DNA from: a virus
Taxonomy: Duplodnaviria; Heunggongvirae; Uroviricota; Caudoviricetes
Length of the DNA: 64,000 nucleotides
Strand: one strand, 5' to 3'
IMG/VR virus record: IMGVR_UViG_3300035208_002606
A program made the translations under genes and the position numbers. This document shows, one piece after another, positions 2 to 21,787 of the stretch. Under the pieces are notes generated by a model. It was not told the origin of the DNA and did no database searches. It saw only the letters and a program-made list of their open reading frames with translations. How positions within the stretch are numbered: the stretch's first letter is position 1; each line of letters opens with the position of its first letter.

Positions 2-1027
2 GGGATAACGGGGTCAGGAAAAAGTTACATTGCCCAAAAAATATCTGAAGAACTAAACATTCCTTATCTAGATTTTGATGCTATGTATGACTATTCTAAT
101 ATCAACACATCTTATGAAAAAGAATTTTTAGACACACTACCAAAACAATTTATTATCGATGGGATACCATATATCAATCAGTACGATTCATTTAATGAAT
201 ATAAAAATAATAACGAAGTAATTATTATTTGTTTGATTCAAAGTGATATAAACAAATGGATTAAAAATATCGTCAATAAATCTTATTTTATAAGTGCCAA
301 CGTCCATTTTGAAAAAGACCATCTGTATAATGCTTGGATATATCTATATACCAAAGGATTGCAAATATTATCCCCAATGTATTTTTATGATAATAGTATG
401 AATAAAGTTTTGGGTTTGGAAGAATTTAATAATATTAAAATACAAGCAATGGCAGAAATACAAAAACTCAAAGAAACCAATACACATATTTTAAAACACT
501 ATATTGAAAATCTACCTTATGTCCCCCTTCGTAATTTTCAAGATATCGAATGCATCAATTACGAAGGATTCTCAAAATCATGGAAAACGTGGGACACAAT
601 AAAATCATTCGTAGATTGGAAAGATAAAACCATTGTTGACGTTGGCCCCTTTCATGGATATTTCTCTTTCAAAGCAGAACAGGCAGGAGCAAAAAAAGTA
701 TATGGTTTAGAAATAGACCCCGCTATTCTAGAAACCGCCAACATCATAAAAAAAATAATACAAAGTAAGGCAGAGTTTTCCTTATGGGACGGAACAACAC
801 CTACCCCACAGGCAAACATCGCTTTGGTTTTAAATGTCTTTCACCATGTAAAGGACAAAGAACTCTTGCTCCAAAACATAAAGGCCAAAACTGCCATTTT
901 TGAAGTCAAAGAACAACAAATGGAATTGGTTAAAAAATATTTTAATATTTTAAAACAAGAAAAATCACATCGGATTGATTTGGACACGAACCTTTACAGA
1001 CACGTTATATTAGGAGAAAAAAAATGA
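2..1027 (+). CDS. P-loop kinase / class I SAM-methyltransferase fusion (5' end outside window)
   Basis: Frame is open from window start: GITGSGKSYIAQ Walker A precedes the listed M; C-terminal IVDVGPFHGYF...VYGLEIDP SAM-MTase motif I. Confidence 0.5.
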   Translation, partial: GITGSGKSYIAQKISEELNIPYLDFDAMYDYSNINTSYEKEFLDTLPKQFIIDGIPYINQYDSFNEYKNNNEVIIICLIQSDINKWIKNIVNKSYFISANVHFEKDHLYNAWIYLYTKGLQILSPMYFYDNSMNKVLGLEEFNNIKIQAMAEIQKLKETNTHILKHYIENLPYVPLRNFQDIECINYEGFSKSWKTWDTIKSFVDWKDKTIVDVGPFHGYFSFKAEQAGAKKVYGLEIDPAILETANIIKKIIQSKAEFSLWDGTTPTPQANIALVLNVFHHVKDKELLLQNIKAKTAIFEVKEQQMELVKKYFNILKQEKSHRIDLDTNLYRHVILGEKK

Positions 1028-2085
1028 ACGGAACATTCACGGACAAAACCATCGTAATTACAGGCGGCACGGGTTCACTAGGAAAAGTATTAGTTCGCCG
1101 TATTCTTGGTGAAGAAATGGGCCGGCCCAGAAAAATTATCGTATTTTCTAGGGACGAAGCCAAACAATATCAAATGCTTATGCATTACGAATCGTTAAAA
1201 AATTCAACAGAAGAAATAATATATCAGAATTATAAAAAAAGTTTACAATTTCGTATCGGAGATGTTAGGAATTATCATTCTTTAAGTTGTGTATTAAGAG
1301 ATGTTGATATTGTTATACACGCAGCCGCATTAAAAATAGTGCCAAATTTGGAAATTTTCCCTTATGAGGGAATTTTAACTAATTGTGAAGGAAGTCAGAA
1401 TATTATAACTGCCATACACGAAAATAAATTTGATATAGAAACTGTTATAGGAATTTCTACTGACAAAGCGGTTCACCCTGAAAATGCTTATGGTGCTATG
1501 AAATTATTAATGGAAAGGCTTTTAATTTCTGCTAATCTTTTTATACCAAATACAAAATTTGTTTTGTGTAGATATGGAAATGTCTTGGATTCTAGGGGTA
1601 GTGTTATCCCTCTTTTCCACGAACAAATTTTAAAAAATATACCGATAACAATTACAACAAAAAATATGACTAGATTTTTATTACCCCTTCTTAAAGGGGT
1701 TGATACCATTCACGAAACTATAAAAAATGGATTAAAAGGTGAAATAATTGTTCCGAAAGTTCCCGCTAGTAAAATACTTGACATAGCAGAACTTTTGATA
1801 GAACATAATAAAAAATTAGAGATAAAAGAAATAGGAATCAGACAAGGTGAAAAAATAAATGAAATTTTAATATCAGAAGAAGAAGCACCAAGAACATATG
1901 AAACCAATGGATACTATCATATACAACCGATGCTTCCAGAATTAACAGATAAGAAATTGTATACAAATATATTAAAACAAGAATATTCTTCTAAAGATTT
2001 TGTTATGAGTAAAAAAGATACGAAAAAATTATTAGAAGAGAATCACCTTTTATATAATAAAGATTATTATGAAAATAATAAATAA
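1024..2085 (+). CDS. UDP-GlcNAc 4,6-dehydratase-like SDR (PseB/FlaA1/CapE family)
   Basis: N-terminal KTIVITGGTGSLGK Rossmann motif typical of FlaA1/CapD/PseB; start overlaps stop of upstream gene (ATGA). Confidence 0.65.
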   Translation: MNGTFTDKTIVITGGTGSLGKVLVRRILGEEMGRPRKIIVFSRDEAKQYQMLMHYESLKNSTEEIIYQNYKKSLQFRIGDVRNYHSLSCVLRDVDIVIHAAALKIVPNLEIFPYEGILTNCEGSQNIITAIHENKFDIETVIGISTDKAVHPENAYGAMKLLMERLLISANLFIPNTKFVLCRYGNVLDSRGSVIPLFHEQILKNIPITITTKNMTRFLLPLLKGVDTIHETIKNGLKGEIIVPKVPASKILDIAELLIEHNKKLEIKEIGIRQGEKINEILISEEEAPRTYETNGYYHIQPMLPELTDKKLYTNILKQEYSSKDFVMSKKDTKKLLEENHLLYNKDYYENNK

Positions 2086-2147
2086 TAGTGAAGGACAGGG
2101 GATGCAACCCTTTCTAGAACACCTCGATTGTTCTAGATTACTTCACT
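2075..2147 (+). promoter_or_regulatory. conserved structured leader upstream of GIY-YIG gene (AATAATAGTG motif + nested hairpins)
   Basis: agtgaagg...cttcact outer helix, gggatgcaaccc palindrome, tctagaaca/tgttctaga hairpin. Confidence 0.5.
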
Positions 2148-2175
2148 TATATTTGGCTTATCGAGGAGGCTAAAG

Positions 2176-2895
2176 ATGAATCAAAAACTTGGAACAATTT
2201 ATATTGCTACCAATCTAGTCAATGGAAAGCAATATGTGGGGCAGACAACAAAAAATTTAAAAAGAAGAATACGAGGACATAAAAATAAACGAAATTATCC
2301 TATTTCTAATGCAATCAAAAAATATGGCATCGAAAATTTCAAATGGATTTCTTTTTCTTGCCCCGAAGAAGACTTGGATTGGCAAGAAAGTTTTTTGATA
2401 AAAGAGTTGAATACATTGGCTCCTTATGGGTATAATCTTGAAACGGGTGGAAATAAAAATAAACATTTACATAAATCAACAAGAGAAATAATGAGTATCA
2501 ATATGATAAAAAGATTGAGAAATAAAAAAAATCATCCTATGTTTGGAAGAAAAAGAAAAGAAGAAGAAAAACCATATAAATTAACATTAGAAATAGCCCA
2601 ATTAATAAGACAAAGAGTTAAAAATGGAGAAAAAGAAATAGATATAGCAAAAGAATATAATGTTCATAGGAAAACCATTTCTAAAATAAAAAACCATAAA
2701 ATTTATATTATTGATGGGGAAAATAAAATATTTAATAATTATGGTAATAGAAAATTAACCAATAACGAAATAACCACAATAAGAAAAAAGATTTCAAATA
2801 AAGAAAAACAGAAAAATATTGCTAAAGAATATAATGTTGGATTTTACACCATTTCTGCTATAAAAAATAATAAAAGTTATATAGGAGAAATATAA
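2176..2895 (+). CDS. GIY-YIG homing endonuclease with C-terminal repeated HTH modules
   Basis: GTIYIATNLVNGKQYVGQT...R..H...YGYNLETGG GIY-YIG core; two IAKEYNV...TISKIKN repeats. Confidence 0.8.
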   Translation: MNQKLGTIYIATNLVNGKQYVGQTTKNLKRRIRGHKNKRNYPISNAIKKYGIENFKWISFSCPEEDLDWQESFLIKELNTLAPYGYNLETGGNKNKHLHKSTREIMSINMIKRLRNKKNHPMFGRKRKEEEKPYKLTLEIAQLIRQRVKNGEKEIDIAKEYNVHRKTISKIKNHKIYIIDGENKIFNNYGNRKLTNNEITTIRKKISNKEKQKNIAKEYNVGFYTISAIKNNKSYIGEI

Positions 2896-3806
2896 TGAAT
2901 TCAAAAATCGCTATTCTTGGTAGTTCAGGAATGTTGGGCCACCAGGTTGCCAATTATTTTTACAGGCATTACTACCCTGCCGACCTGACATTTTTCGCAA
3001 GGAACATAGACAGCAAGAAATGGCAGGGAGTGGAGACAGTTGAATTGGACGATGATTGGTGTGCTTTGCACGATATCAACAAATACGATTATATTATCAA
3101 CTGTATCGGAGTTATTAATCGCCGTATTGACGAAAAAGACCCGTCAAGCAGAATTAATGCTTTTATCGGCAATGTTTCCCTACCGTATTATCTCGCACGA
3201 AAAGTGGAAGGCACGAACACACAAATCCTGCAAATTTCAACCGATTGCGTATTCAACGGCAAAGAACCTTTGGCACTTACGGAAGTGACCCCACATAACG
3301 CAACGGATTGGTACGGCAAAACAAAGAGTCTTGGGGAAGTCGTATCCAAAAATTTCCACCATATTCGCACTTCCATTATCGGCAGGGAAGAGCCGCCGAA
3401 TCGTAGGTCGCTGTTGGAGTGGTTCCTGCATTTGGAGCAGGGGGCCGAGGTCAATGGTTTTGTCAATCATTTATGGAACGGCACAACTACGCTAGAGTTC
3501 GCCAAACTTTGTTTCTCCATCATCACCAATAATATAGACATGCCCCTCGTTCACCACTTTGTCCACATCGATATCGTTACCAAATATGGAATGCTCAAAA
3601 CCTTTGCCAAAGTATTTGATAGGCCCGATATCAAGATAAATCCTTACGAGACTGAACCCGTATATAAGGCATTGACCACTCTAAGTCCGAACCTTAATGC
3701 CGAACTAGTAGCGTCAATAGGATATAAAAAACCGACATTTGAAAATTTATTATGGGAGTTAAAGAATGAAACAGAAAATTCTAGTGTGTTTGGGTACGAG
3801 ACCTGA
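2895..3806 (+). CDS. RmlD/CapF-like NAD(P)-dependent sugar-nucleotide reductase
   Basis: N-terminal KIAILGSSGMLG Rossmann motif; position after dehydratase in operon. Confidence 0.5.
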   Translation: MNSKIAILGSSGMLGHQVANYFYRHYYPADLTFFARNIDSKKWQGVETVELDDDWCALHDINKYDYIINCIGVINRRIDEKDPSSRINAFIGNVSLPYYLARKVEGTNTQILQISTDCVFNGKEPLALTEVTPHNATDWYGKTKSLGEVVSKNFHHIRTSIIGREEPPNRRSLLEWFLHLEQGAEVNGFVNHLWNGTTTLEFAKLCFSIITNNIDMPLVHHFVHIDIVTKYGMLKTFAKVFDRPDIKINPYETEPVYKALTTLSPNLNAELVASIGYKKPTFENLLWELKNETENSSVFGYET

Positions 3807-4830
3807 AATAATACGTTTATCTCAAATCATTTTCAAACTTAAACAAGTGGCTGATGTGGTGGTGGTCAATACTAACCAAAACTTTGACCCCAAATTGAAC
3901 GAAAACTTTTTACAAGAATTGGGTATACATATCGACCATAACCTGAACGCTAGAGGGACTTTTTCCGAACAATGTGCGGGAATTTTTATGGGGATGGAGC
4001 ATGTTATTACCCAAGAGAAGCCGCATAAGTTCCTTGTACTTGGGGACACCAATTCAGGACTTGGGGCCATCATTGCAAAGAAAATGGGAATACCCGTCTA
4101 TCATTTGGAAGCAGGAAACCGTTGTTTCGATGATGCTGTTCCCGAAGAAGTAAACCGCCGTGTTATTGACCATTGTTCCGATATTCTCATGCCGTATACC
4201 GAACGAGCAAAAGAGAATTTAGTTGTAGAAGGGATTCCCCGCCAACGTATTTATATTATTGGCAACCCCATCTTTGAGGTTATCAATCATTATACTTCCA
4301 AGGCTAGACAAGACAGAGTTTGGAAAAAACCATATTATCTTATTACCCTTCACCGTTCGGAAAATGTGGACAATGAAGAACGCTTCGCAAGATTCCTTCA
4401 TCTTTTCACAACCTTTGCGGAATTACACAAGGATACCGATGTAATTGTCAGCACTCACCCGCATACAAGGCTGAATATGACCAAGATGGGAATAGCAATG
4501 GATACAATGCCAAAAAATTTAATATTTTCTGAACCATTTGGGTTTACGGATTTTATTAATCTTGAATTGAACGCCAAAATGGTATTTACGGATTCAGGAA
4601 CAGTTCAAGAAGAATGTTCCATTCTTAAAGTTCCCAACATGACCCTTAGGACGACAACTGAACGCCCCGAAACAATTGAGAGCGGCTCCAATATTTTAAT
4701 GAATCAGGATTTTGACCTGATGAATAACGAATATTTCCAAATGGTGACAGGAAGCCCTCCATCAGGATATTTGGATGAAAATGTCAGCGATAAAGTCGTA
4801 CGAATAATTTTAGGGCATTATCAAAAGTAA
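3766..4830 (+). CDS. UDP-N-acetylglucosamine 2-epimerase (WecB/CapG family)
   Basis: MKQKILVCLGTRPEIIRLSQII matches WecB N-terminus (FGTRPEAIKMAP); HLEAG, DSGT motifs. Confidence 0.7.
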   Translation: MKQKILVCLGTRPEIIRLSQIIFKLKQVADVVVVNTNQNFDPKLNENFLQELGIHIDHNLNARGTFSEQCAGIFMGMEHVITQEKPHKFLVLGDTNSGLGAIIAKKMGIPVYHLEAGNRCFDDAVPEEVNRRVIDHCSDILMPYTERAKENLVVEGIPRQRIYIIGNPIFEVINHYTSKARQDRVWKKPYYLITLHRSENVDNEERFARFLHLFTTFAELHKDTDVIVSTHPHTRLNMTKMGIAMDTMPKNLIFSEPFGFTDFINLELNAKMVFTDSGTVQEECSILKVPNMTLRTTTERPETIESGSNILMNQDFDLMNNEYFQMVTGSPPSGYLDENVSDKVVRIILGHYQK

Positions 4831-4845
4831 TTTTTATTACACTCT

Positions 4846-4856
4846 GTGGTATAATA
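4846..4856 (+). promoter_or_regulatory. extended -10 promoter TGTGGTATAAT
   Basis: TGnTATAAT 18 nt upstream of RBS. Confidence 0.5.
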
Positions 4857-4873
4857 GATACTAGGAGGAAAAA

Positions 4874-5296
4874 ATGAATGTATACACCGACAACATGAAC
4901 TACTTTCAAAAGTTGATTCATGTATCCAAACAAAAACTTCAGAAGAAGTACGGTTGTTTCGCTGACTGCTCAGAAATGAGAGAGTACACCACATTGGTGT
5001 TCTACGACAAGGCAAGTAAAATTGCCCGTTTCGAAGTGGCAATCGTTCACCCCAAAAAGGACAGATTCAGCCGTGCGGGTGGTCGTGAGGAAGTACTGAA
5101 GCATCTCGCAAATGAAAAGGGATTTATGACTGTTGACCTGAGTGAGATGATGAAGGACGTAACCCCGGAATACGAGAAAAAAATCGTGTCCCACCTGTTG
5201 AGTGATTTCACCCATGAAATCATACCGAGGAGACTTTTCGGCAAACAGGTGAAACTTGTACCAACTTCTGAAGTAGCAGAACCCGAACAGAAGTAA
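4874..5296 (+). CDS. hypothetical protein
   Basis: ORF with RBS aggaggaaaaaATG downstream of extended -10 promoter. Confidence 0.5.
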   Translation: MNVYTDNMNYFQKLIHVSKQKLQKKYGCFADCSEMREYTTLVFYDKASKIARFEVAIVHPKKDRFSRAGGREEVLKHLANEKGFMTVDLSEMMKDVTPEYEKKIVSHLLSDFTHEIIPRRLFGKQVKLVPTSEVAEPEQK

Positions 5297-5883
5297 TGTT
5301 TACGGTAGGGTCTGTTCAATTTGAATGTGAGCGGGTATTCCCACCGGAATACCCTGCTCATGCTATTAATTCAGAAAGAGTTTTTGAAGTTCCTCTGTTG
5401 AAATATTATGTCAATAAGTTTAGTAATCATCCTAATTTCATAGAAGTTGGGGCTTGTTCCAAACACTTCATGCCCGTGTCTCACCCAATTTACGATGCTC
5501 AGGAAAAGGGTGCAATCAACGAGTTCGCAGAAAACCTGAAATACGAAGGCAAAAATGTACTCTGCATCTCTACGATTGAACACATCGGTGCTGGACACTT
5601 CGGACTCCCTTATCAACCCCTTCATGCCATCACCGTCCTGAACATGATTCTCGATGCGGAAACCTATCTCATCACCTTTCCCATTTTTCAGAATACTCTG
5701 CTAGATTACTATGTTCGCAACATTATCCAAAACCTAATTCCTTTAAATGTCAAGACCGCATCACGAGATGTGGACAACAATTGGAAAGTGGACGCTAAAA
5801 ATAATTTCGACTACAAGTACGGAACTCCTTATCCCTACGCAAACGGAGTCTGTATAATTACGAACCTTCCTGAGTTGGTTTAA
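5296..5883 (+). CDS. hypothetical protein
   Basis: ORF, stop/start overlap with upstream gene. Confidence 0.45.
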   Translation: MFTVGSVQFECERVFPPEYPAHAINSERVFEVPLLKYYVNKFSNHPNFIEVGACSKHFMPVSHPIYDAQEKGAINEFAENLKYEGKNVLCISTIEHIGAGHFGLPYQPLHAITVLNMILDAETYLITFPIFQNTLLDYYVRNIIQNLIPLNVKTASRDVDNNWKVDAKNNFDYKYGTPYPYANGVCIITNLPELV

Positions 5884-5895
5884 ATAAATAACAGT

Positions 5896-6102
5896 ATGAA
5901 GTTCAAAATAGTGGGTACAGGCTCGAACGCCAATTATGATTATCGTAAATATAAAAGACTAGCCCCACCAAAAAGAGAAAAATCTATCCCTGATAAAGAT
6001 TTAATAATAAACAAAGGCGCATCAAATACACAAGCAAATAAATCACAAGATGAATATTTTTATAAAGGGAAACCTTTCCAAAGCGATAAACCACATGTGT
6101 GA
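5896..6102 (+). CDS. hypothetical small protein (MKFK start)
   Basis: 68 aa ORF beginning MKFKIV. Confidence 0.3.
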   Translation: MKFKIVGTGSNANYDYRKYKRLAPPKREKSIPDKDLIINKGASNTQANKSQDEYFYKGKPFQSDKPHV

Positions 6103-6111
6103 TTCCAATAA

Positions 6112-6186
6112 AAACAATAAATAATAGTGAAGGACAGGGGTTGCAACCCTTTTTGAAATGCTCACTCCATTTCAAATCACTTCACT
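6112..6186 (+). promoter_or_regulatory. conserved structured leader upstream of HNH gene
   Basis: Same architecture: agtgaagg...cttcact, gggttgcaaccc, ttgaaatg/catttcaa. Confidence 0.5.
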
Positions 6187-6198
6187 TTAAAATTCAAT

Positions 6199-6948
6199 TT
6201 GAGTGAGGAGTTGAAGATGAACCAAAAATATTCCACAAAAGAAAGAAAAGAAGCAAGAAGAAAAAATCAAAAAAAATACAACCAGAAACATAGAGAAGAA
6301 AGAAAAAAATATAAAAAAGAATACGACCAAAAACATAAAGAAGAAAGAAAATTAAAGGGTAAAGAATATTATCAAAACAATAAAGAAAAAATATCATTAC
6401 AGCGAAAAGAATATCGTAAAAATCACAAAAAAGAAATAAAAGAACATTATCAAAAAAATAAAGAAAAAATATTACAAAAGAAAAAAGAATATCGTAAAAT
6501 ACATAAAGAAGAAATAGACACATATAATAAAAAATATAGTAAATGCCATAAAGAAGAAAGGAAAAAATACGATAAGGAATATCGAAAAAAACATAAAATA
6601 AAACGTAATAAAAATAGAAATGCGAAATTAAAAACTGACATTAATTTTAAAATTGCCTTTAATTTACGAACCAGATTACGTTCAGCAATCAAAAATAACC
6701 AAAAAGTAGGTTCCGCAGTCAGAGATTTAGGTTGTACTATTCCCGAACTTAAACTTTACTTAGAATCGAAATTTCAAGACGGAATGTCTTGGAAAAATTA
6801 TGGTTATTGGGGTTGGCATATAGACCACATAATTCCTTTATACTCCTTCAATCTTCAAAATAGAGAAGAATTCTTAAAGGCCTGTCATTATACAAACCTT
6901 CAACCGATGTGGGCCGAAGAAAATTTTAAAAAAGGAAAATACATATAA
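6199..6948 (+). CDS. HNH homing endonuclease with Lys/Arg-rich repeat N-terminus
   Basis: C-terminal GWHIDHIIPL...N....HYTNLQPMWAEENFKKG HNH motif; RBS gagtgaggagttgaagATG. Confidence 0.8.
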   Translation: MSEELKMNQKYSTKERKEARRKNQKKYNQKHREERKKYKKEYDQKHKEERKLKGKEYYQNNKEKISLQRKEYRKNHKKEIKEHYQKNKEKILQKKKEYRKIHKEEIDTYNKKYSKCHKEERKKYDKEYRKKHKIKRNKNRNAKLKTDINFKIAFNLRTRLRSAIKNNQKVGSAVRDLGCTIPELKLYLESKFQDGMSWKNYGYWGWHIDHIIPLYSFNLQNREEFLKACHYTNLQPMWAEENFKKGKYI

Positions 6949-6959
6949 TTCCCAACCCC

Positions 6960-6988
6960 TTGACAAACACTACCAAGTGTGATATAAT
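6960..6988 (+). promoter_or_regulatory. consensus sigma70-type promoter TTGACA-17-TATAAT with TGTG extension
   Basis: ttgacaaacactaccaagtgtgatataat. Confidence 0.6.
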
Positions 6989-6994
6989 ACTATC

Positions 6995-7699
6995 ATGGAA
7001 AAACTGAAAATGGAAAAACTGAATATCCCGGGCCTTGTTTGTCCCATTTGCAATAAAAGGCTGATAAAAACCTCCCACGTTGCCATTGTAGACAGGAATA
7101 CCATTATCCATTTCGGAGCCAAATGTTTCATCACTTATATTGCAAAAACCCAAGAGCATCTTCCTGAAAAAAAGAGGGACAGGGTCAGCAAGTACGATTA
7201 CCTTTATTACTTCACCGCAAATTATGAAAAATCCAACAAGGCCATCACCGAAGCCGAATATATCAATTACCAAAAGCAGTTCACCAATGTCTTTCTTATG
7301 TTGGAACCCGTGGCCCTAAGGAAACAAATCAGGGACAGGATTTGGGGTTTCGTAGGGAGAAAACTCGCCAAAAATCTTCAGTATCTTCACGCCCTGAATA
7401 AAATTTACAACGACAACAAGGAGCGTTGGAGACCCAACGGTTTTCAGCCGACATTCATTTCATCCGTTTCCAATCAGTTTAAAACCAAGGGGTATTTGAG
7501 CAAAAAGCAATGGCAACTCGTTCAAGACCTTGTCGAAAGGAATATTAAACAGGAAGATAGACATTATCTTTATACCTCTCTTTCAGATTCAGACGATATT
7601 GCCAACCTTATGCTCCCCGACAAACTCCGTTGGTTGCAGAGCAGGAAAAGTTTTTATGCCATGTACAATCGGGAGCATGGAATTCCCGAAGAGGAGTAA
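6995..7699 (+). CDS. hypothetical protein (CPIC zinc-binding N-terminus)
   Basis: 234 aa ORF downstream of consensus sigma70-like promoter at 6960-6988. Confidence 0.5.
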   Translation: MEKLKMEKLNIPGLVCPICNKRLIKTSHVAIVDRNTIIHFGAKCFITYIAKTQEHLPEKKRDRVSKYDYLYYFTANYEKSNKAITEAEYINYQKQFTNVFLMLEPVALRKQIRDRIWGFVGRKLAKNLQYLHALNKIYNDNKERWRPNGFQPTFISSVSNQFKTKGYLSKKQWQLVQDLVERNIKQEDRHYLYTSLSDSDDIANLMLPDKLRWLQSRKSFYAMYNREHGIPEEE

Positions 7700-7702
7700 A
7701 GA

Positions 7703-7975
7703 ATGAAAATAATTTGGTATGGTTTATTATTTATCCCTAGTAATCGTCTTTTGGGATTTTCTACAATGTCAAACCCCGAAGATGGAGAATGTATTGGGGT
7801 TATGTTTACTCTTGATTTATATTCCGATAATATTTGGTTAGTGTCAAAACAAGAAATTGCAGAAAGAGCAAGAACAACAAATACCTCATGGTATAATGCA
7901 GGATATGATAGCCCCGAAAATACTTTTAATTCTAAAGACTTAAAAGTCGTCCAAGTGGAGATAGAAGTCAAATAA
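7703..7975 (+). CDS. hypothetical protein
   Basis: 90 aa ORF, RBS gaggagtaaagaATG. Confidence 0.35.
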   Translation: MKIIWYGLLFIPSNRLLGFSTMSNPEDGECIGVMFTLDLYSDNIWLVSKQEIAERARTTNTSWYNAGYDSPENTFNSKDLKVVQVEIEVK

Positions 7976-8040
7976 AAAGCACTAAATAAAAGTAGATGAA
8001 ACTAGTAATTATTGAAAAACTTAAAACGCAGGACTAAAAT

Positions 8041-8670
8041 ATGGCCGAAAAAAAATATTTTACCAAGGAAGAAAAAAAATTAGCACAAAAAGAAAACTAT
8101 AAAAAGTGGTACGAAAATCATAAAACAGAAAGAAAAGCAAAAGATAATAAACGGCGCAGGGAATACTATCAAAATCATAAAGAAGAGCGATTATTATACG
8201 CAAAAGAATATCGTGAAAATCATAAAGAAAAAGGAAAAAAATACAATAAAAATTGGAGGACTGAACATAAACAAGAAATAAAAATAAAAAGAAAAGAATA
8301 TTATCAAAATCATAAAGAAGAGAGAAATAAATATACTCTTAATAAATTGAAAAATAATATTAATTTTAAAATAGCAAATAATTTACGAAATAGATTACGC
8401 CAAGCCTTAAAAGATAATCAAAAATCAGGTTCAGCAGTTAAAGATTTAGGATGTTCTATCCCCGAACTTAAAACCCATTTAGAATCCAAATTTCAAGACG
8501 GAATGACTTGGGATAATTGGTCTCCTACAGGTTGGCACATCGACCATATCAAACCTTTGGCTTCTTTTAATTTAATTAACAGAAAAGAGTTTTTAAAAGC
8601 AAATCATTACACAAATTTGCAACCAATGTGGGCTGAAGAAAACTTTAAAAAGGGGAAAAATGCAATTTGA
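8041..8670 (+). CDS. HNH homing endonuclease (paralog of 6199-6948)
   Basis: GWHIDHIKPLASFNL...HYTNLQPMWAEENFKKG; same Lys-rich N-terminal repeats. Confidence 0.8.
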   Translation: MAEKKYFTKEEKKLAQKENYKKWYENHKTERKAKDNKRRREYYQNHKEERLLYAKEYRENHKEKGKKYNKNWRTEHKQEIKIKRKEYYQNHKEERNKYTLNKLKNNINFKIANNLRNRLRQALKDNQKSGSAVKDLGCSIPELKTHLESKFQDGMTWDNWSPTGWHIDHIKPLASFNLINRKEFLKANHYTNLQPMWAEENFKKGKNAI

Positions 8671-9865
8671 AATTTTAGAAAAATTAGAAGTAAATTTAAA
8701 TAAAGAAATTTCTTTATTTGATTATATTAAAGACAAATCATTTGAGCAAATAAAAACAGATTTATCGCAAGACCCCCTTAATATTAAAACACAAGAAAAA
8801 GAAAATTTATATTTATTAAAGTACTCTCAAATCGACTCCGACTTTTCGTACAGAATCGTACGCCAATGCAGGGGGATTATTCTAGAGAAAGGTACGAACA
8901 AAATCGTGGCCTACCCCTTCGACAAATTCTTTAACATTCAGGAAGGACATGCCGACAAGGTGGACTTCGGGACGGCATCAATTCAGGAGAAAGTGGACGG
9001 CAGTATTATCAAGGTCTATTACTACGACAACAAGTGGAATATTGCGACCAACGGCACAATCGATGCGAAGGATGCTGAAGCCACGGACACGCTGACGGAT
9101 AAAAAGTACAACTTCCACGACTTGTTCTTGGACGGCATCGAAGAGCAGGGCATCACCTTTCCCGAACTGACGAAGAAGATGAACCCTGACTTGACTTATA
9201 TCTTTGAACTCGTTCACCCCGTCACCCGTATCGTTGTCAAATACGAAAAGCCGGGGATTTATCTCATCGGCATCCGCAACAACAAGACGGGAAAGGAAAT
9301 CGACACCTTTGACGAGTCGGATGAGACGGTTAAGGATATTACGGGCTTGGGAATCAAAAGACCCAAGACCTATCAGTTCGCTTCAACAGAGGAAATGATT
9401 GCGGCGGCAGAAAAACTCACGAAGGATGAAGAGGGATATGTCGTTCGAGACAAGGAATTCCGCAGGGTCAAGGTGAAGAGTCCCCTCTATCTTAAATTGC
9501 ATTATCTCAAGGCCAACAACGAATTGACCCCGAAGCACTTCATCGAACTCATTCAGCAGAATGAGACGGACGAGTTCTTGGGGAGTTTTCCTGAGTACAA
9601 GCCGAAGGTTGACGATATTCGCAACAGGATTTTTCGATACATCGAAACGGCGCAGAAAGATTGGCAAGACCTCTACAAACTCTTCGGGCCTGAGTTCAAA
9701 TCCCGCAGGGAATTTGCCGAAGTTGCGAAGAAGACCACGAACTCAGGAGCGATGTTTAAAGCGTTGGACGCTTTTCAGAAAGGTGAGACAGATATCAATA
9801 AATTTATCCATAAATACATTATGGAGATGCAAACGGACAGGCTGTTGACAGCAATAGGAGTGTGA
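8660..9865 (+). CDS. ATP-dependent RNA ligase (Rnl-type nucleotidyltransferase)
   Basis: IQEKVDGSIIKVYY KxDG motif I; size and context (next to CCA/Pnk genes). Confidence 0.6.
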   Translation: MQFEILEKLEVNLNKEISLFDYIKDKSFEQIKTDLSQDPLNIKTQEKENLYLLKYSQIDSDFSYRIVRQCRGIILEKGTNKIVAYPFDKFFNIQEGHADKVDFGTASIQEKVDGSIIKVYYYDNKWNIATNGTIDAKDAEATDTLTDKKYNFHDLFLDGIEEQGITFPELTKKMNPDLTYIFELVHPVTRIVVKYEKPGIYLIGIRNNKTGKEIDTFDESDETVKDITGLGIKRPKTYQFASTEEMIAAAEKLTKDEEGYVVRDKEFRRVKVKSPLYLKLHYLKANNELTPKHFIELIQQNETDEFLGSFPEYKPKVDDIRNRIFRYIETAQKDWQDLYKLFGPEFKSRREFAEVAKKTTNSGAMFKALDAFQKGETDINKFIHKYIMEMQTDRLLTAIGV

Positions 9866-12545: not shown

Positions 12546-12908
12546 ATGGAATTCACTTTACTTGAAACAACATACACAATGGGAATGTGTGATGCCTATG
12601 CAATTGCCCTGCATCAAATATATGGCTATCCATTATATGTAATTTATGGTGTATATAAAGATGAGGACGATGAAGAAAATATGGAGCCTTGTCATATTGT
12701 TGCTAAAAAAGGAAACAAATATCTTGATGTGAGAGGAGAACGCACTAAAGAAGAACTGCTAAAGAATTGTGTTTTTATGAATAAAGTATTTAAGGTGAAA
12801 TTCATTGAGACTAGCGAAGAAGAGGCTAGATATATTTTCACTTCAGAAGGTGTTTCTAGTGCCGATATCGTAAAAGCAAAAAAGGAAATATTAAAAAATG
12901 GAATTTAG
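12546..12908 (+). CDS. hypothetical protein (MEFTLLE start)
   Basis: ORF with RBS. Confidence 0.5.
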   Translation: MEFTLLETTYTMGMCDAYAIALHQIYGYPLYVIYGVYKDEDDEENMEPCHIVAKKGNKYLDVRGERTKEELLKNCVFMNKVFKVKFIETSEEEARYIFTSEGVSSADIVKAKKEILKNGI

Positions 12909-14286
12909 AAATTTCGGTGATGTACCGCCGCAAGCCTTGGAAATCGCACAAGTCCTGAATGACGCAGGATACGAAGCCTATTTGGTAGGCGGCTGTGTCA
13001 GGGATATTATGCTAGGCAAAGAACCTAAAGATTGGGATTTCGCAACAAGCGCAACCCCAAAGGAAACCGAACGAGTCCTAACGGAAGCGGAAATCAAGAA
13101 CTACGACAAGGGTGCGGAGTATGGAACTTGGGCGGCTATCATAGACGGCGAAGAATTTGAAATCACGACCTACCGTCTAGAGGCAGACTATTCCGATGCC
13201 CGTAGGCCAAAAGCCGTTTCTTTCTCCAAGGGCATCAAGGAAGACTTGGCCCGTAGGGACTTGACGGTGAACGCTATGGCATTTGACCCGCTGACGGGTG
13301 AGATTATCGACCCCTTCGGCGGTCAGGAAGATTTAGAACGGGGACTTATCAAGGCAGTCGGGAGGCCTGAGGAAAGATTTCATGAGGACGCTCTACGCCT
13401 GATGAGAGCCGTCCGCTTTGCCTCCCGTTACGGATTTGATATAGACGAAGACACGAAGAAAGCGATAAAGAGAAACGCAGAGAGGTTACGATATGTTTCA
13501 GCCGAAAGAATTCGTGATGAACTCAATGGGATTTTGCTGACAGAGAAACCGTCCGTGGGGTTACAACTCCTTCACGACTTGGGCTTGCTGAAAATTGCTT
13601 TGCCCGAAGTAGATATTTTGGATACGGTTCCACAGCAAAGCCCTTGGCATCACAAGAATGTTTTCGGACACACTCTCGATGTCGTAGATAATTCTCCCGC
13701 CCGTGCGGATGTCAGGTGGGCAACCCTCTTGCATGACACGGGAAAGGAGAAGGCTAGGGTCAGGGACGAGACGGGTCGAGACCGCTTTATCGGTCACGAC
13801 TTAATATCCGCAGAAATTGCGGAAGTCGTTCTCAAGCGTCTGAAGTTTGACAACTCTACGGCAAATAAAATTGTTAAGTTGATTGCCCTGCATCAAGCAG
13901 AGCCGAAGAAGCGCAACAAAATAAAACATTTTATTCGGCACTTGGGTGTTGAAAATCTAGAGGATTGGAAGGCCATGCGGCTTGCAGACATTACGGCCCA
14001 CAAGCCCGAGAAAGTTGAAGCAGGAATGGCAATCCACGGAGAACGGGTCAAGACCCTGGACGATATTCTTGCCAAGAACGAGCCGTATATGATTTCGCAG
14101 TTGGATATCAACGGAAACGAGTTGAAAGAAGTCGGGGTTCCTGCTGGACCCATAATGGGAAAAGTCCTGAGGGGATTATTGGACTTGGTGATTCAAAGCC
14201 CTGAAAAAAATCAAAAGGCTTTCCTGAGGAATTGGGCCAAAAATAATTGGCAGAGGATTCAGAAAGAGATAAATAGTGGTAGATGA
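12898..14286 (+). CDS. cca: CCA-adding tRNA nucleotidyltransferase with HD domain
   Basis: YLVGGCVRDIMLGKEPKDWDFATSATP head-domain signature; WHHKNVFGHTLDVVD...LLHDTGK HD motif. Confidence 0.8.
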   Translation: MEFRNFGDVPPQALEIAQVLNDAGYEAYLVGGCVRDIMLGKEPKDWDFATSATPKETERVLTEAEIKNYDKGAEYGTWAAIIDGEEFEITTYRLEADYSDARRPKAVSFSKGIKEDLARRDLTVNAMAFDPLTGEIIDPFGGQEDLERGLIKAVGRPEERFHEDALRLMRAVRFASRYGFDIDEDTKKAIKRNAERLRYVSAERIRDELNGILLTEKPSVGLQLLHDLGLLKIALPEVDILDTVPQQSPWHHKNVFGHTLDVVDNSPARADVRWATLLHDTGKEKARVRDETGRDRFIGHDLISAEIAEVVLKRLKFDNSTANKIVKLIALHQAEPKKRNKIKHFIRHLGVENLEDWKAMRLADITAHKPEKVEAGMAIHGERVKTLDDILAKNEPYMISQLDINGNELKEVGVPAGPIMGKVLRGLLDLVIQSPEKNQKAFLRNWAKNNWQRIQKEINSGR

Positions 14287-15374
14287 AATTTAAGGTCGTA
14301 GATTTACCCCAAGGCGTTCAGACAATCGGTAACGTGCTGAACAAGAACGGATTCAAAGCCTATGTCGTAGGCGGGGCCGTACGAGACTATTTGCTTGGCA
14401 GACCCCCTAAGGATTGGGACATTGCGACCTCCGCAAAACCTGAAGATGTCATGCGAATCTTCGAAGGCATGGACTTCAAGATTTGGCCTATGGGACAAAA
14501 GTACGGCATCGTAAAAGTTCAAGCCGGCACGGACGATTACGATATCACAACCCTTCGCAAGCGCATATCTTTCGAGGGCGGGAAATCGCAAGTTGCCGAA
14601 TATTCAGACAGCATTGAAGAAGACTTGGCGTTCAGGGACTTGACCATCAACGCCCTGGCCATCGACATTCAGACAGGAGAAATTATCGACCCTCACGGCG
14701 GTCAGGAAGATTTAAAAAATGGTATCGTTCGGGCAATTGGAGACCCTGACGAACGCCTGAAGGAAGGGCCGATTCGTTCCCTTCGTGCGATTCGCTTCGC
14801 AGTCAAGTACAATTTCAAGTTAGACCAAGAAACGGCAAACACCATCAAGCGGCATGCTTCCGAATTAAAGATGGTCGCAGGGGGGCGCATCAAGCGGGAA
14901 CTTAATACGATGCTCCTGCTTGACGATGCATCGAGAGCGTTGCGGATGTTGCGGGATACGGGCGTTGCAAGAGCATTGTTTCCCGAAGTAAATTTGGACG
15001 AAGCGATAGAAAAAATCAACGACCTTCCGAAGAATCTTGAAGAGCGGTGGGCTGAAATTTTAAAGGACACGGGAAAGGGTGAAAAAATCTCCACCGCAAT
15101 CGCAAGGCAAATCATGCGCCGTCTTGGATTCGTGCTTGCGGAAATCGAAAAGGTCAACAGGCTGATTTATTCCAAGGGCGAACAGAAATTGACGGCAGAC
15201 GATTTGGATATCACGGAGAAGGAACTTCAAAAATTGGGAATTACGCCTGAAGAAATGGAGACGATAAAAACCCAACTCATCAATCTGATTGTATTCCGGC
15301 CTGAGAAGAACAAGAACTCCATCCTGAAGAACAGGGTGAAGAAGTGGAAGCAAGGGGTTGCGATAGAAAAATGA
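14283..15374 (+). CDS. tRNA nucleotidyltransferase / poly(A) polymerase head-domain paralog (no HD domain)
   Basis: YVVGGAVRDYLLGRPPKDWDIATSAKP; RDLTINALAID; paralog of upstream gene. Confidence 0.75.
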   Translation: MKFKVVDLPQGVQTIGNVLNKNGFKAYVVGGAVRDYLLGRPPKDWDIATSAKPEDVMRIFEGMDFKIWPMGQKYGIVKVQAGTDDYDITTLRKRISFEGGKSQVAEYSDSIEEDLAFRDLTINALAIDIQTGEIIDPHGGQEDLKNGIVRAIGDPDERLKEGPIRSLRAIRFAVKYNFKLDQETANTIKRHASELKMVAGGRIKRELNTMLLLDDASRALRMLRDTGVARALFPEVNLDEAIEKINDLPKNLEERWAEILKDTGKGEKISTAIARQIMRRLGFVLAEIEKVNRLIYSKGEQKLTADDLDITEKELQKLGITPEEMETIKTQLINLIVFRPEKNKNSILKNRVKKWKQGVAIEK

Positions 15375-17350: not shown

Positions 17351-17426
17351 TCGGGGTGTAGCGCAGTTGGTAGCGTATCTGCTTTGGGAGCAGAGAGTCG
17401 GAGGTTCGAACCCTCTCACCCCGACC
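17351..17426 (+). tRNA. tRNA-Pro(TGG), CCA encoded
   Basis: Acceptor cggggtg/caccccg, anticodon loop tttggga, T-arm ggaggttcgaaccctct; 10 nt downstream of extended -10 promoter. Confidence 0.7.
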
Positions 17427-17448
17427 ATTTTTAAAAAGTTCGCAAAGG

Positions 17449-17478
17449 ACTTGACAAGTAGAAATTAGCATGTTATAC
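17449..17478 (+). promoter_or_regulatory. sigma70-type promoter TTGACA-18-TATACT
   Basis: cttgacaagtagaaattagcatgttatact. Confidence 0.45.
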
Positions 17479-17675
17479 TTGTCACGGATGATATGACCTA
17501 GCAGGATGCGGGTCTTAGGTTGTTTGACATTTTGGTTTTGTGGTTTTTGTGAAGTGGGGCCGGTAGTTTCCCGGTCTTGTATCGGGATGGTATCGCCCCC
17601 GCTTCTTTTTCCTGAAGAGGGTCGATACTCTTTTCGGTGCAGTTAGATGCATCGGGAGTATCGCCCCTCTTCATA

Positions 17676-17935
17676 ATTCAGCGGCGGTGTGGAAGGACAC
17701 ACTAGGAGAGTGAGTGAGGACAGGCCTGACTACGGGTTAGCGGAACAACCGCTCCTTCGGGTTCTCCTGAAATGGAGATTGAATGTCTGAAGATATCCCA
17801 ATAAGAAATGCTCAAAGCGTGAGTGGTGTTAGAAAAAAGTAGGTTTACCGCTCTAAGGCACGGCAATTTAATATTTGCATGCTTACATACGCAACGGAAG
17901 TCCCACAAGTAGGTATCAAGTCCTACCCGCTGAAT
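17676..17935 (+). ncRNA. family-E tRNA-like structured RNA element
   Basis: Terminal helix attcagcgg/ccgctgaat; 5' hairpin gtgtg-GAAGGA-cacac; 3' hairpin gtagg-tatcaagt-cctac; U-tail. Confidence 0.4.
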
Positions 17936-18029
17936 TTTTAATCTAACCGCTTCGCCGTTGTGCGGCCTCCTGAAACATGGAAAAACAACGGCACTTGCAA
18001 TATTACTTCTTAATACTTTACTTTTATAT

Positions 18030-18105
18030 GGGGCCGTGGCAGACAAGTAGGTGCGTCTCGTTGTCAGCGAGGAATATGGGGGTGCGATTCCCCTCGACCC
18101 CGCCA
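18030..18105 (+). tRNA. tRNA-Asp(GTC), CCA encoded, non-canonical D/T loops
   Basis: Acceptor ggggccg/cgacccc, anticodon stem tctcg/cgagg, loop ttgtcag, T-loop tgcgatt, D-loop lacks GG. Confidence 0.45.
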
Positions 18106-18304
18106 AGCATTATTACGATGGGTTTTACAGCGTTAGGGCCATCATAAAAACAAGAAACTGTACTGAGGAGGGTTTTTCCGTGTTGTGCCTCAATAAAAAG
18201 AAACGGACTTTGCACTTTTTGTTCGTTACCAAGTGTAACGAACCCACAGAGGTTTCGTTCGCCTGAACCCGTCTGACGAATCAGGCGAAGATTATATCTC
18301 ACCT

Positions 18305-18456
18305 ATCAGCAGGTGGAAGGACACCGCATCGTGGAAGAGGAACTACTTTCCAACATCGGAGAGAAGCCCCTGGCCTCAAGACTAGGCAGTAGAATTCATG
18401 GGTCCATCACGATGGCTACATCTGAAGGAGTCAGCGGGTGTCGAGTCCCGCCTGAT
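18305..18456 (+). ncRNA. family-E element
   Basis: atcagc.../...cctgat termini; ggtg-GAAGGA-cacc hairpin; 3' hairpin gcggg-tgtcgagt-cccgc. Confidence 0.35.
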
Positions 18457-19111
18457 TGGTTATTAGTTAAGGTTTTCGGTGAACCTCCTAAGGTCGTACA
18501 GCGACCAAGGGTTATCGTACGTAAAAACCGAATTGGAATAGAGTAGGTTGGGGAAAGACGCCTAGGGTCTCCTGACCGAATTGGCTTTTGTGTCGTTGTG
18601 CCGCACCCACTTGATATCGTGGGCAGAGAAAACAACGGCTTGGAGTTCTTTGCCGTTATCCACCAATTCCATCGGCAGATAGGGTTGGTATTAAAAAATC
18701 AACGGCTTCCAATTTGATTTTACTGATTCTTTAAAAGAATCGGAAAACATAAAATGAGGCTTTCCGTTGTGCCATCCATCACCAAGTACCTAGAGTCGGG
18801 TTAATGGGAAAACAACGGGTTTCATTTTATTATCCTTGTTGTCCTTTATTGAGGTTAGCGGTGAGCCGCAAGAAGTGGTACTCGGAACTCCAATCCTAGC
18901 ACCTATGCTTGAAAAACCGCTGAGGTCAATGGCATTAATTTAGCAATGTATATATTGAGGCGAGAACGGGAGTAGAAATTGGGTTCTCCCTAATTCTGAC
19001 CTATTCCCATTCTCACTTCAAGCATTACTATCGCAGGAGGGAGGTCAATATCTCAGGTGGTTTCATATGCCATCTTAAAGTCGTGTAACTCGGCTTCCTG
19101 CTAGAAAATTA

Positions 19112-19188
19112 TCGCAGAGTATCCTAGTGGCTAAGGAATGAGTTTCATAAACTCGGAGCCGAAGGTTCGAATCCTTCCTCTGCGACCA
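19112..19188 (+). tRNA. tRNA-Met(CAT), CCA encoded
   Basis: Acceptor tcgcaga/tctgcga, loop ttcataa, T-arm gaaggttcgaatccttc. Confidence 0.7.
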
Positions 19189-19198
19189 AAGCAATTTT

Positions 19199-19287
19199 AC
19201 CGAAGGACGGTAGCCCCGTTTCCGCAAGAATAGGCATCGGCTAGCAAAACTATTCCATAGGAATGAGAGTAGCCTCTCATCTTCGGT
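19199..19287 (+). ncRNA. family-E-like element (divergent)
   Basis: accgaag/cttcggt termini, 3' hairpin tgaga-gtagcc-tctca, T-tract. Confidence 0.3.
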
Positions 19288-19294
19288 TTTTTAT

Positions 19295-19365
19295 GGCCCT
19301 ATCGGCTAATAGTAGGCCGCTTCCCTTTCAAGGAAGAAACGTCGGAGCGTAACCGGCTAGGGCTA
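19295..19365 (+). tRNA. tRNA-Glu(TTC)-like, non-canonical T-loop agcgtaa
   Basis: Acceptor ggcccta/tagggct, anticodon stem cttcc/ggaag, loop ctttcaa. Confidence 0.45.
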
Positions 19366-19378
19366 CTTAATTTTTTTC

Positions 19379-19449
19379 GTCCCTATCGGCTAATAGTAGG
19401 CCACTTCACTCTCAATGAAGAAACCTCAGAGCGTAACTGAGTAGGGATA
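19379..19449 (+). tRNA. tRNA-Glu(CTC)-like, tandem paralog of preceding
   Basis: Acceptor gtcccta/tagggat, loop ctctcaa, T-arm ctcag-agcgtaa-ctgag. Confidence 0.45.
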
Positions 19450-19466
19450 CTTAGCAATTTTATGTA

Positions 19467-19610
19467 TGGAGCGGGTCTTGAAAAACACAAGAACGTCTCG
19501 GAAAATAGGGGTTGAAGGCACCCCAACGATACGGGTAACGAAAAAAGGAGCAGTAGCCCTTTACAACCTATAAAGGGGACTTCCTTATGGGTGAAATTCC
19601 CATCGCTCCA
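19467..19610 (+). ncRNA. family-E-like element (divergent)
   Basis: tggagcg/cgctcca termini, 3' hairpin atggg-tgaaatt-cccat. Confidence 0.3.
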
Positions 19611-19623
19611 CTTGCAATTTTAT

Positions 19624-19751
19624 GCGCGGGGTCCGATTGGGTGACATTCCCACGAACTAGTTTCGCCATCAGGGAGTGATGCCCCAAAGTGGTGCAACGA
19701 AAAAGGTGAGGAAATCGCATCCCTTTAGACGGTGGAACTCCGTCCCTGCGC
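19624..19751 (+). ncRNA. family-E-like element (divergent)
   Basis: gcgcgggg/ccctgcgc termini, 3' hairpin gacgg-tggaact-ccgtc. Confidence 0.3.
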
Positions 19752-19765
19752 TTTTAAATTTTTAA

Positions 19766-19836
19766 GCCCGATTAGTTTAAAAGTAAAACGCAATCCTGAT
19801 AAGGTTGATACGGTGGAGCGTTACCATCATCGGGCA
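19766..19836 (+). tRNA. tRNA-Ile(GAT), non-canonical class
   Basis: Acceptor gcccgat/atcgggc, AC stem caatc/ggttg, loop ctgataa, T-loop agcgtta. Confidence 0.45.
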
Positions 19837-19840
19837 TTTA

Positions 19841-19925
19841 TGCCGTAGTAGTCTAGCAGCAATGACAGCAGACTGTAAATCTGCCCCTCGTAAGAGGTTC
19901 GTAGGTGCGAGTCCTTCCTGCGGCA
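19841..19925 (+). tRNA. tRNA-Tyr(GTA), class II, non-canonical T-loop
   Basis: AC arm gcaga-ctgtaaa-tctgc, variable hairpin cctc-gtaa-gagg, acceptor gccgtag/ctgcggc. Confidence 0.5.
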
Positions 19926-20253
19926 CTTTGTTTTGTTCTTTAGTCAGTCCACCTTGAGAGAGATACGCTTCAGCGGCTCTCTAAGTTTTGTCCGTCTTTA
20001 TTAGACAGATGGGCTTGTGGACGCTTTAGAATTCGTTGGCGGTGTGTAGGGCGTGTAGTTTTGAATGCGACTAGACAAACGGATGCCCTATGTCAGCGAA
20101 GATAAATTATAATTAGATATTAATTAGAATGGGAACCTTAGGGCGTTGAATTGTGTCGCAGGGTCAATTGCTCTAAGGGGATGAGTTTGGATTAACGGGC
20201 GGTGGAGCCGACCATTGTTTAGGCGTTGAAGCCGCCCGAAATTTTTGTCGTGT

Positions 20254-20324
20254 AGCCGCATAAGTTAAAGGCAAACTGGTTCACTTATAATGGACTCATC
20301 CTAGTTCGATTCTAGGTGCGGCTA
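20254..20324 (+). tRNA. tRNA with anticodon TAT (Ile-like)
   Basis: Acceptor agccgca/tgcggct, D-arm agtt-aaaggca-aact, loop cttataa, T-arm cctag-ttcgatt-ctagg. Confidence 0.4.
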
Positions 20325-20574: not shown

Positions 20575-20585
20575 TGTGGTATAAT
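20575..20585 (+). promoter_or_regulatory. extended -10 promoter upstream of tRNA-Ala
   Basis: gtgtggtataat. Confidence 0.55.
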
Positions 20586-20593
20586 AGAAGTAT

Positions 20594-21783: not shown

Positions 21784-21787
21784 TCGC

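Follow-up and report, generated by a model that had tools for sequence, protein, structure and literature searches.

A structured RNA leader with fully complementary kissing loops precedes homing endonuclease genes in an uncultured phage and probably restrains their translation

How a genome is spared harm by the free-standing homing endonucleases that it carries is poorly understood, according to a review of phage T4 (PMC2988022). This question is raised by a 64,000-nucleotide stretch of viral DNA (IMG/VR record IMGVR_UViG_3300035208_002606, Caudoviricetes; hereafter the window), in which three nuclease genes, HEG1, HEG2 and HEG3, are each preceded by a copy of the same structured leader of about 95 bases. 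An initial annotation, made from the sequence without database searches, had noticed the element and proposed a co-varying RNA structure that serves translational or processing control, or that marks the footprint of a mobile unit. Here, we describe the leader and its relatives, whose anatomy suggests that it is probably a cis-acting translational repressor and part of a nuclease cassette. Coordinates refer to the plus strand of the window, and copies 1, 2 and 3 are the leaders of HEG1, HEG2 and HEG3, respectively.

Anatomy of the leader

Each copy consists of a promoter-like box, a three-way junction formed by helices P1, P2 and P3, and a fourth hairpin, P4, that reaches the start codon (Table 1). 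The upstream open reading frames (ORFs) stop at 2085, 6102 and 45435, and the box is overlapped only by the stop codon of the first of these. All three copies are thus intergenic, which rules out the alternative, raised in the initial annotation, that the element is the 3′ end of the upstream coding sequences. Against dinucleotide shuffles, the three-way fold of the 65-nucleotide cores reaches z-scores of −3.4 to −3.8, and ViennaRNA predicts the junction as well as P4 in all three copies. A covariance model of the leader has exactly three matches in the window, with E-values between 1e-15 and 4e-18.

From 5′ to 3′, the leader runs from the box (aaaaCAnTAAATAATAGTG) through P1, the junction GAC, P2, P3, the second junction UUA and the 3′ arm of P1 to a linker and P4. 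P1 has 5–9 bp, with a 5′ arm that shares bases with the end of the box. P2 is a helix of 5–6 bp, AGGGG(U)/(A)CCCUU, and is followed without a linker by P3, with 7–10 bp and a loop of 6–7 nucleotides. The second junction is UCA in two copies. An A/U-rich linker of 0–12 nucleotides separates P1 from P4, which has 2–9 bp over all copies; in the window it has 8 bp and ends 0–1 nucleotides before the AUG.

The most striking feature is the relation between two of the loops. In each window copy, the P3 and P4 loops are Watson-Crick complements over their full length, and the Shine-Dalgarno sequence (SD) is made up of the P4 loop, which holds its 5′ part, and the 3′ arm of P4 (Table 1). The ribosome-binding site is thus buried in structure, which points to translational control, as the initial annotation had suggested.

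The individual sequence features of that annotation were recovered in place: the AATAATAGTG box, an outer helix (AGTGAAG/CTTCACT in copies 1 and 2, (TA)GTGTAGG/CCTACAC(TA) in copy 3), a GGG..GCAACCC hairpin, and an inner 9-bp hairpin that differs per copy. The three copies of the element also stand, but its extent of about 75 nucleotides, ending at the outer helix, was too short, as the leader continues through the 8-bp P4 to the start codon. The start of the HNH gene at 6199 had to be revised as well, since the TTG at this position sits within the leader and the gene begins at the ATG at 6217. A candidate fourth copy near 51615 (AATAATAATG ... GCAACCCTG) was rejected, being inside a coding sequence and having no match to the covariance model.

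Several other identities for the structure were considered and set aside. A tRNA-like reading fails for want of a T arm, with an ‘anticodon’ stem that would be 9 bp and no match to a tRNA model at E ≤ 10. A leader peptide that begins with the AUG of the P2 loop would lack its start codon in copy 3, and neither its frame nor its stop is conserved; that the P3 arms change compensatorily at all codon positions also counts against it. A terminator or attenuator is not apparent either, as no T-run follows the hairpins and a scan of the leaders predicted neither a terminator nor a sigma-70-like promoter inside them. In the whole window, searches with Rfam 15 at gathering thresholds matched only 36 tRNAs, and with permissive filters no match was obtained on 2070-2200 at E ≤ 10. 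Megablast of window positions 1000-9000, and blastn with the copy 2 leader, against 50,697 GenBank phage records gave no real match. We found no description of this leader in the literature; a bulk catalogue of viral RNA motifs, with more than 10,000 entries (PMC10690425), could list it unnamed.

Covariation among relatives of the leader

Used as an exact pattern, the conserved P2 region was found in 19 viral and 29 metagenomic stretches, which come from samples of freshwater, sediment and groundwater, as well as in one small contig binned to a Syntrophomonadaceae metagenome-assembled genome. A covariance model (R1, 13 copies) found more divergent copies on the same contigs and none additional in the window. 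These searches together yielded 32 distinct complete leader copies in viral and metagenomic contigs. In all 32, the P3 loop is complementary to a segment that lies immediately 5′ of the SD and overlaps it, and 29 different P3 loop sequences occur among them. The complementary run of cognate pairs averages 6.34 nucleotides, or 98% of the loop, compared to 3.46 nucleotides for 986 non-cognate combinations of loop and leader that were searched by the identical procedure. The SD is split between the P4 loop, paired with the P3 loop, and the P4 3′ arm in each window copy and in almost every one of the 32.

An alignment of the 32 copies registered to the structure (A5) contains double changes in 31 of 38 pairs. 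Its covariation score of 0.589 compares to 0.185 in shuffles, none of 500 of which reached the observed value, and to 0.06–0.12 when the partners were slid by 1–3 columns. All seven pairs of the kissing helix co-vary, with two to four Watson-Crick types each and no G-U pair. Three checks are independent of the fitting of A5: the non-cognate control described above, RNAalifold on an unfitted MAFFT alignment (A2, P1–P3 only), and a comparison of copy 1 with its orthologue on contig L046. RNAalifold recovered P1, P2 and P3, with compensatory changes in 12 of 20 pairs. The orthologue, 93% identical to copy 1, carries seven substitutions within helices, of which four make up two compensatory doubles, three are transitions to G-U, and none disrupts a pair.

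Constraint is distributed unevenly over the leader. Among the 32 copies, the nucleotides of the junction and the stem of P2 hardly vary, while P1, P3, P4 and the kissing loops drift freely. In divergent copies P2, too, has changed in a compensatory way (GGG/CCC to GAG/CUC, G-C to U-A), and the P2 loops differ, among them AUGCAA, UGCA, GAUA, UUGGCC and CGC. G-U pairs appear only in the sense of the plus strand, which argues that the constraint acts on RNA. The co-varying RNA structure that the initial annotation had claimed from three copies is therefore borne out by overwhelming covariation over 32.

One sequence, present on several contigs (L004, L012, L031 and L035), is an outlier with P1 AGGAG/CUCCU, and has an in-frame TTG right after P1 that could be the real start. 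Two further copies, at 8603-8686 of contig L005 and 8861-8959 of L010, are decayed: they keep the junction and P2 intact but have lost P3 or the P4/SD partner, and neither is followed by an intact nuclease ORF. They resemble what is left of dead cassettes.

Nuclease cassettes and their promoters

In the window and its relatives, the genes downstream of the leader span five or more unrelated nuclease families: GIY-YIG proteins with or without NUMOD3, KYFTEEE-type HNH proteins, classical HNH (PF01844) and Endonuclease_7 proteins, HNH_3 with AP2, and DUF7487 with DUF559. Each leader copy examined lies 5′ of a nuclease gene or a nuclease remnant. Conversely, homologues of the HNH protein were found at 80 viral loci, of which only two have the leader, both on contigs already known to have it. 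This rules out the leader as an attribute of the HNH protein family; it is a module of certain cassettes and phage lineages rather than of one protein family.

Comparison of flanking regions among relatives shows the leader only where a nuclease is present. At the DNA ligase locus, where the insert in the window spans 45436-46062, two relatives (L052 and L053, contigs of 223 kb and 169 kb with ligases 72% and 65% identical) have the ligase straight after the stop of the upstream gene, and both HEG3 and the leader are absent. At the RNA-ligase locus, a third relative (L055) lacks both HEG2 and its leader. L052 in turn has a divergent leader (loop CCCCTAA, complement TTAGGGG) and a GIY-YIG gene at 5235-5889, directly downstream of its ligase gene. 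Since HEG3 lies upstream of the ligase in the window, different nuclease cassettes flank the same conserved gene in different phages. For copy 1, no relatives of the gene at 2895-3806 were found with which to make an empty-site comparison. The suggestion that the leader may travel with a mobile unit is thus supported at the ligase and RNA-ligase loci.

As is typical of free-standing homing endonuclease cassettes, ORFs of homing families (GIY-YIG and HNH-type) stand between conserved genes and are present or absent among relatives. A group I intron was rejected as an explanation because the ORFs on either side are distinct, complete genes, with the HEG1 stop overlapping the start of the following gene at 2895, and because no intron model matched; the intact neighbouring genes of relatives without the insert also count against it. 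Judging from sequence, the best reading is that the leader is the 5′ untranslated part of a self-contained putative nuclease cassette composed of promoter, leader and ORF.

The box at the start of the leader had been annotated as part of the element. It is indeed present in all three copies, but it is a general promoter-like motif of this phage rather than specific to the leader. The motif TAAATAAnAGT has ten sites on the plus strand of the window and none on the minus strand, each directly upstream of a gene. Seven of these, at 5885, 7983, 17266, 20700, 26057, 26460 and 63409, have the box as (A/C)TAAATAAnAGT without a structured leader. An ATG follows the box immediately at 5885, 26057 and 26460. 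If transcription starts at the base after AGT, the mRNAs at these three genes would be leaderless, and those at 7983 and 63409 would have leaders of 2–3 nucleotides.

The core of the box, (A/C)TAAATA, agrees with the late promoters of T4 and Aeh1, located at −12/−13 to −6 (PMC1524935). The structural operon on the minus strand has ATAAATACTATT upstream, and the large terminase is 25–29% identical to those of T4-like and related myoviruses. With T4-type spacing, the predicted transcription start is the purine after AGT, at P1 or 1–3 nucleotides inside it. In five further copies (L002, L003, L020, L034 and L039), the box is replaced by sigma-70-like −10 hexamers (TATAAT, TATAGT or TAAAAT) located 5–7 nucleotides before P1. 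Two unrelated promoter types therefore both put the predicted start at P1. An internal promoter in the linker between P1 and P4, following the logic of T4, was rejected, as the linkers have no more than TAAAT in common with the box, without its AGT part, and the sigma-70 scan was empty; the linkers of the sigma-70-type copies contain no usable −10 hexamer.

Downstream of the HEG3 cassette, the DNA ligase gene has its own promoter at 46063-46091, a perfect sigma-70 consensus (TTGACA-17-TATAAT) whose −35 hexamer overlaps the last HEG3 codons. Seven such perfect promoters are found on the plus strand of the window and none on the minus strand, and these are presumably early promoters.

Table 1. 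Positions of the three leaders, their parts, the nuclease genes that follow them and the nuclease-like genes of the tRNA block.
Feature	Position	Strand	Details
Copy 1, leader	2079-2178	+	
Copy 1, promoter-like box	2079-2089	+	TAAATAATAGT; matches T4-type late-promoter core nTAAATA; predicted +1 G2090 (spacing rule from PMC1524935)
Copy 1, three-way junction	2087-2147	+	P1 2087-2093/2141-2147; first junction GAC 2094-2096; second junction TTA 2138-2140
Copy 1, P2	2097-2101/2108-2112	+	Loop ATGCAA
Copy 1, P3	2113-2121/2129-2137	+	Loop CCTCGAT 2122-2128
Copy 1, P4	2152-2174	+	Arms 2152-2159/2167-2174; loop ATCGAGG 2160-2166, complements P3 loop
Copy 1, SD and start codon		+	GAGGAGG across P4 loop and 3′ arm; ATG 2176
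HEG1	2176-2895	+	GIY-YIG homing endonuclease, 239 amino acids; Pfam PF01541; PHROG homing endonuclease
Copy 2, leader	6118-6219	+	
Copy 2, promoter-like box	6118-6128	+	TAAATAATAGT
Copy 2, three-way junction	6126-6186	+	P1 6126-6132/6180-6186; first junction 6133-6135; second junction TCA 6177-6179
Copy 2, P2	6136-6141/6146-6151	+	Loop TGCA
Copy 2, P3	6152-6160/6168-6176	+	Loop CTCACTC 6161-6167
Copy 2, P4	6193-6215	+	Arms 6193-6200/6208-6215; loop GAGTGAG 6201-6207, complements P3 loop; SD GAGGAG; ATG 6217
HEG2	6217-6948	+	HNH-type nuclease, 243 amino acids; WHIDHIIPL...NLQPMWAEEN; phrog_1035
Copy 3, leader	45442-45539	+	
Copy 3, promoter-like box	45442-45452	+	TAAATAATAGT
Copy 3, three-way junction	45449-45511	+	P1 45449-45457/45503-45511; first junction 45458-45460; second junction TTA 45500-45502
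Copy 3, P2	45461-45466/45470-45475	+	Loop CGC
Copy 3, P3	45476-45484/45491-45499	+	Loop CCACGC 45485-45490
Copy 3, P4	45515-45536	+	Arms 45515-45522/45529-45536; loop GCGTGG 45523-45528, complements P3 loop; SD GGGGG; ATG 45537
HEG3	45537-46073	+	HEG2 paralogue, 178 amino acids; WHIDHIIPL...NLQPMWAEEN; phrog_1035
Nuclease-like gene of tRNA block	20722-21783		Paralogue of 23883-24875; weak DUF7487 match
Nuclease-like gene of tRNA block	23883-24875		Paralogue of 20722-21783; weak DUF7487 match
Nuclease-like gene of tRNA block	22833-23258		HNH_3 + HTH_7

The surroundings of the cassettes are varied. HEG1 lies between two genes of sugar-nucleotide epimerase/dehydratase type (1024-2085 and 2895-3806), in a sugar-modification cluster that also holds a UDP-GlcNAc 2-epimerase gene (3766-4830) and a methyltransferase-like gene (83-1027). 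Elsewhere in the window, a block at 17352-29342 contains 36 tRNA genes interspersed with nuclease-like genes that have a box or none and no structured leader. A repeat of more than 100 nucleotides (ctttttatttctactattttattttgcttgggTAAATAAAAGtcgggaattgcc...), with copies at 21660 and 24731 on the minus strand, is antisense to the two paralogous nuclease-like genes of this block. A set of genes for RNA repair and tRNA maturation at 8660-9865, 12898-15374 and 28452-29198 includes an RNA ligase, two tandem CCA-adding-enzyme-like genes and a Thg1-like tRNA-His guanylyltransferase.

Possible functions of the leader

From this anatomy, we infer repression of translation, as well as the site at which transcription starts. 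Transcription would begin at most a few bases from the 5′ end of P1, and the RNA would fold into a compact three-way junction of P1, GAC, P2 stacked directly on P3, and UUA. Some 10–15 nucleotides after P1, the ribosome-binding region would form the weak hairpin P4, with the SD in its loop and 3′ arm. Pairing of the 6–7-nucleotide P3 loop with the entire P4 loop would then create a kissing complex or pseudoknot that clamps the SD, so that 30S subunits would rarely bind. A potentially toxic nuclease would thereby be made in small amounts or only under certain conditions. On average, P4 alone contributes −2.6 kcal/mol and the kissing duplex −7.6; the junction core comes to −18.7, and SD:anti-SD pairing to −8.9. 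The kiss thus supplies most of the occlusion, the total energy of which is, by these estimates, of the same order as that of ribosome binding.

Several points weigh against this reading. A single hairpin would do for simple occlusion, and a fixed brake does not account for the strictly conserved GAC/UUA junction and P2. In IncI-alpha plasmids, loop pairing next to the SD activates translation, and the sign of the effect is not certain. The folding programs used cannot model the kiss, and its stability and geometry are estimates. Transcription starts were placed from motif spacing only, and in the window copies the predicted start 1–3 nucleotides inside the 5′ arm may leave P1 with only 4–6 bp in the transcripts of the cassette. 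Alignment A5 was registered by hand to the structure, with P1 trimmed to 6 bp, and its figure of 99.5% paired positions arises by construction. In the outlier sequence of L004 and L012, finally, the complement of the P3 loop (GCTGGA) lies 25 nucleotides upstream of the ATG, without an SD.

The unexplained junction leads to the possibility of a true switch, in which the junction (GAC, UUA and P2) is recognised by a small molecule, or by a protein of the phage or host, whose binding alters the stability of P1 or the orientation of P3. The kiss would then be made or broken, and the nuclease timed to, for example, the replication state or nucleotide pools. That the junction and P2 are nearly invariant in the 32 copies, when simple occlusion does not need them and the other helices and kissing loops drift, fits such a riboswitch or protein-responsive element, as does the short and marginal P1, which is seen in many aptamers. 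The kiss and P4 together, at about −10 kcal/mol, are close to the −8.9 of SD:anti-SD pairing and could form a poised equilibrium. Moreover, an external signal shared by at least five unrelated nuclease families fits better than autoregulation. However, the binding pocket would be limited to six unpaired junction nucleotides, the P2 loop varies, no Rfam aptamer matches at E ≤ 10, and the associated genes give no hint of a metabolite. There is also no conserved, mutually exclusive alternative helix: a search for one, for instance between the 3′ arms of P3 and P4, gave only low-complexity A/U matches in few copies. We therefore regard a switch as unlikely. The same doubt applies to its widest form, a new class of regulatory RNA for selfish nucleases, in which a horizontally spreading switch senses a metabolite, a protein or the stage of infection through its junction, and the loops, free to change yet always matched, serve as a private address against cross-reaction between several copies in one genome.

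Readings in which occlusion of the SD is secondary or incidental fit less well. The 5′ structure might primarily protect the message from 5′-end-dependent decay, or offer a site to RNase III or RNase E, in the coaxial P3-kiss-P4 stack of about 22–24 bp or in the A/U-rich linker, at which the message is matured or destroyed. P1 at the predicted 5′ end in two promoter contexts and the single-stranded, A/U-rich linker are in line with this, and RNase E processing has been reported near T4 segB and segG and Aeh1 mobE (PMC2988022). Pure stabilisation, however, does not require a P3-loop partner that is always proximal to the SD at a fixed distance from the AUG, nor the rest of the SD always in the P4 3′ arm, and we consider a primary role in stability or processing improbable. 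We give still less credence to a feature of the DNA (a recombination or homing target, or a promoter or operator) or to an independent small non-coding RNA or ribozyme. A 21-mer, GGACAGGGGWTGCAACCCTTT, is common to cassettes with unrelated ORFs and could provide homology for cassette shuffling, and the box overlaps the 5′ arm of P1. The helices, though, are kept by compensatory changes and by G-U pairs, which are A-C on the other strand. As for an independent RNA, no terminator after the junction or internal promoter is predicted, the structure is continuous into the SD and AUG, and no known ribozyme or non-coding RNA family matches.

The preferred reading, a translational brake, has precedents among selfish nucleases. 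Structures that sequester the ribosome-binding site regulate I-TevI, I-TevII, I-TevIII, segB and Aeh1 mobE (PMC2988022). As in the present leader, a cis-acting RNA structure buries the SD upstream of a homing endonuclease ORF, a late-type promoter adjoins it, and the setting is a large T4-related phage. In the T-even systems, the nuclease ORF also contains promoters of host genes that lie downstream (PMC2988022), as HEG3 does here with the ligase promoter. The T-even hairpins, however, are simple and gene-specific, share no sequence and are bypassed by a late promoter inside the hairpin, which yields transcripts without the inhibitory 5′ arm. The present leader is a conserved structure of several helices, shared by at least five nuclease families and by different phage lineages, and its predicted promoter lies upstream of P1, so that the whole structure would be transcribed. 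This architecture is new; the regulatory principle is known from T-even phages.

The individual components have counterparts in other RNAs. Fully complementary kissing hairpins, such as the 7-nucleotide loops of ColE1 RNA I/RNA II and the 6-nucleotide loops of HIV TAR-TAR*, are very stable. Such kisses are either engineered or made in trans, with a role in the control of replication or as model systems, whereas both loops of the present leader are in one mRNA and the second holds the SD. The guanidine-II (mini-ykkC) riboswitch likewise has two hairpins in a 5′ leader whose loop-loop contact controls access to an SD in or near the second hairpin. Its invariant ACGR tetraloops hold the ligand and kissing turns expression on, whereas the leader has variable 6–7-mers (29 sequences in 32 copies) without the ACGR motif or a ligand site in the loops, and an additional three-way junction. 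Purine-type aptamers share the three-way junction closed by a short P1 at the mRNA 5′ end, the conserved junction nucleotides and a loop-loop contact. In these, L2 kisses L3 inside the aptamer via conserved bases, whereas the contact described here joins P3 to a hairpin outside the junction, by Watson-Crick pairs whose sequence is free, and there is no similarity in sequence or model. In the IncI-alpha/IncB repZ/repA system, a hairpin loop pairs with a segment directly 5′ of the SD, and the resulting pseudoknot activates translation and depends on the translation of a leader peptide. In our case, the pairing covers part of the SD, whose remainder is held in a stem, and there is no conserved leader ORF.

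For a set of uncultured large phages, the leader offers a concrete and testable answer to how the carrier genome is protected from its own nucleases. It is a portable RNA module, reused by unrelated nuclease families in two promoter contexts. If it acts as proposed, it would be an unusually clean natural case of SD occlusion by fully complementary kissing loops, with dozens of co-varying loop pairs. The leader may also be of use as an RNA family for annotation, as a metagenome marker of nuclease cassettes and as a template for orthogonal translational clamps.

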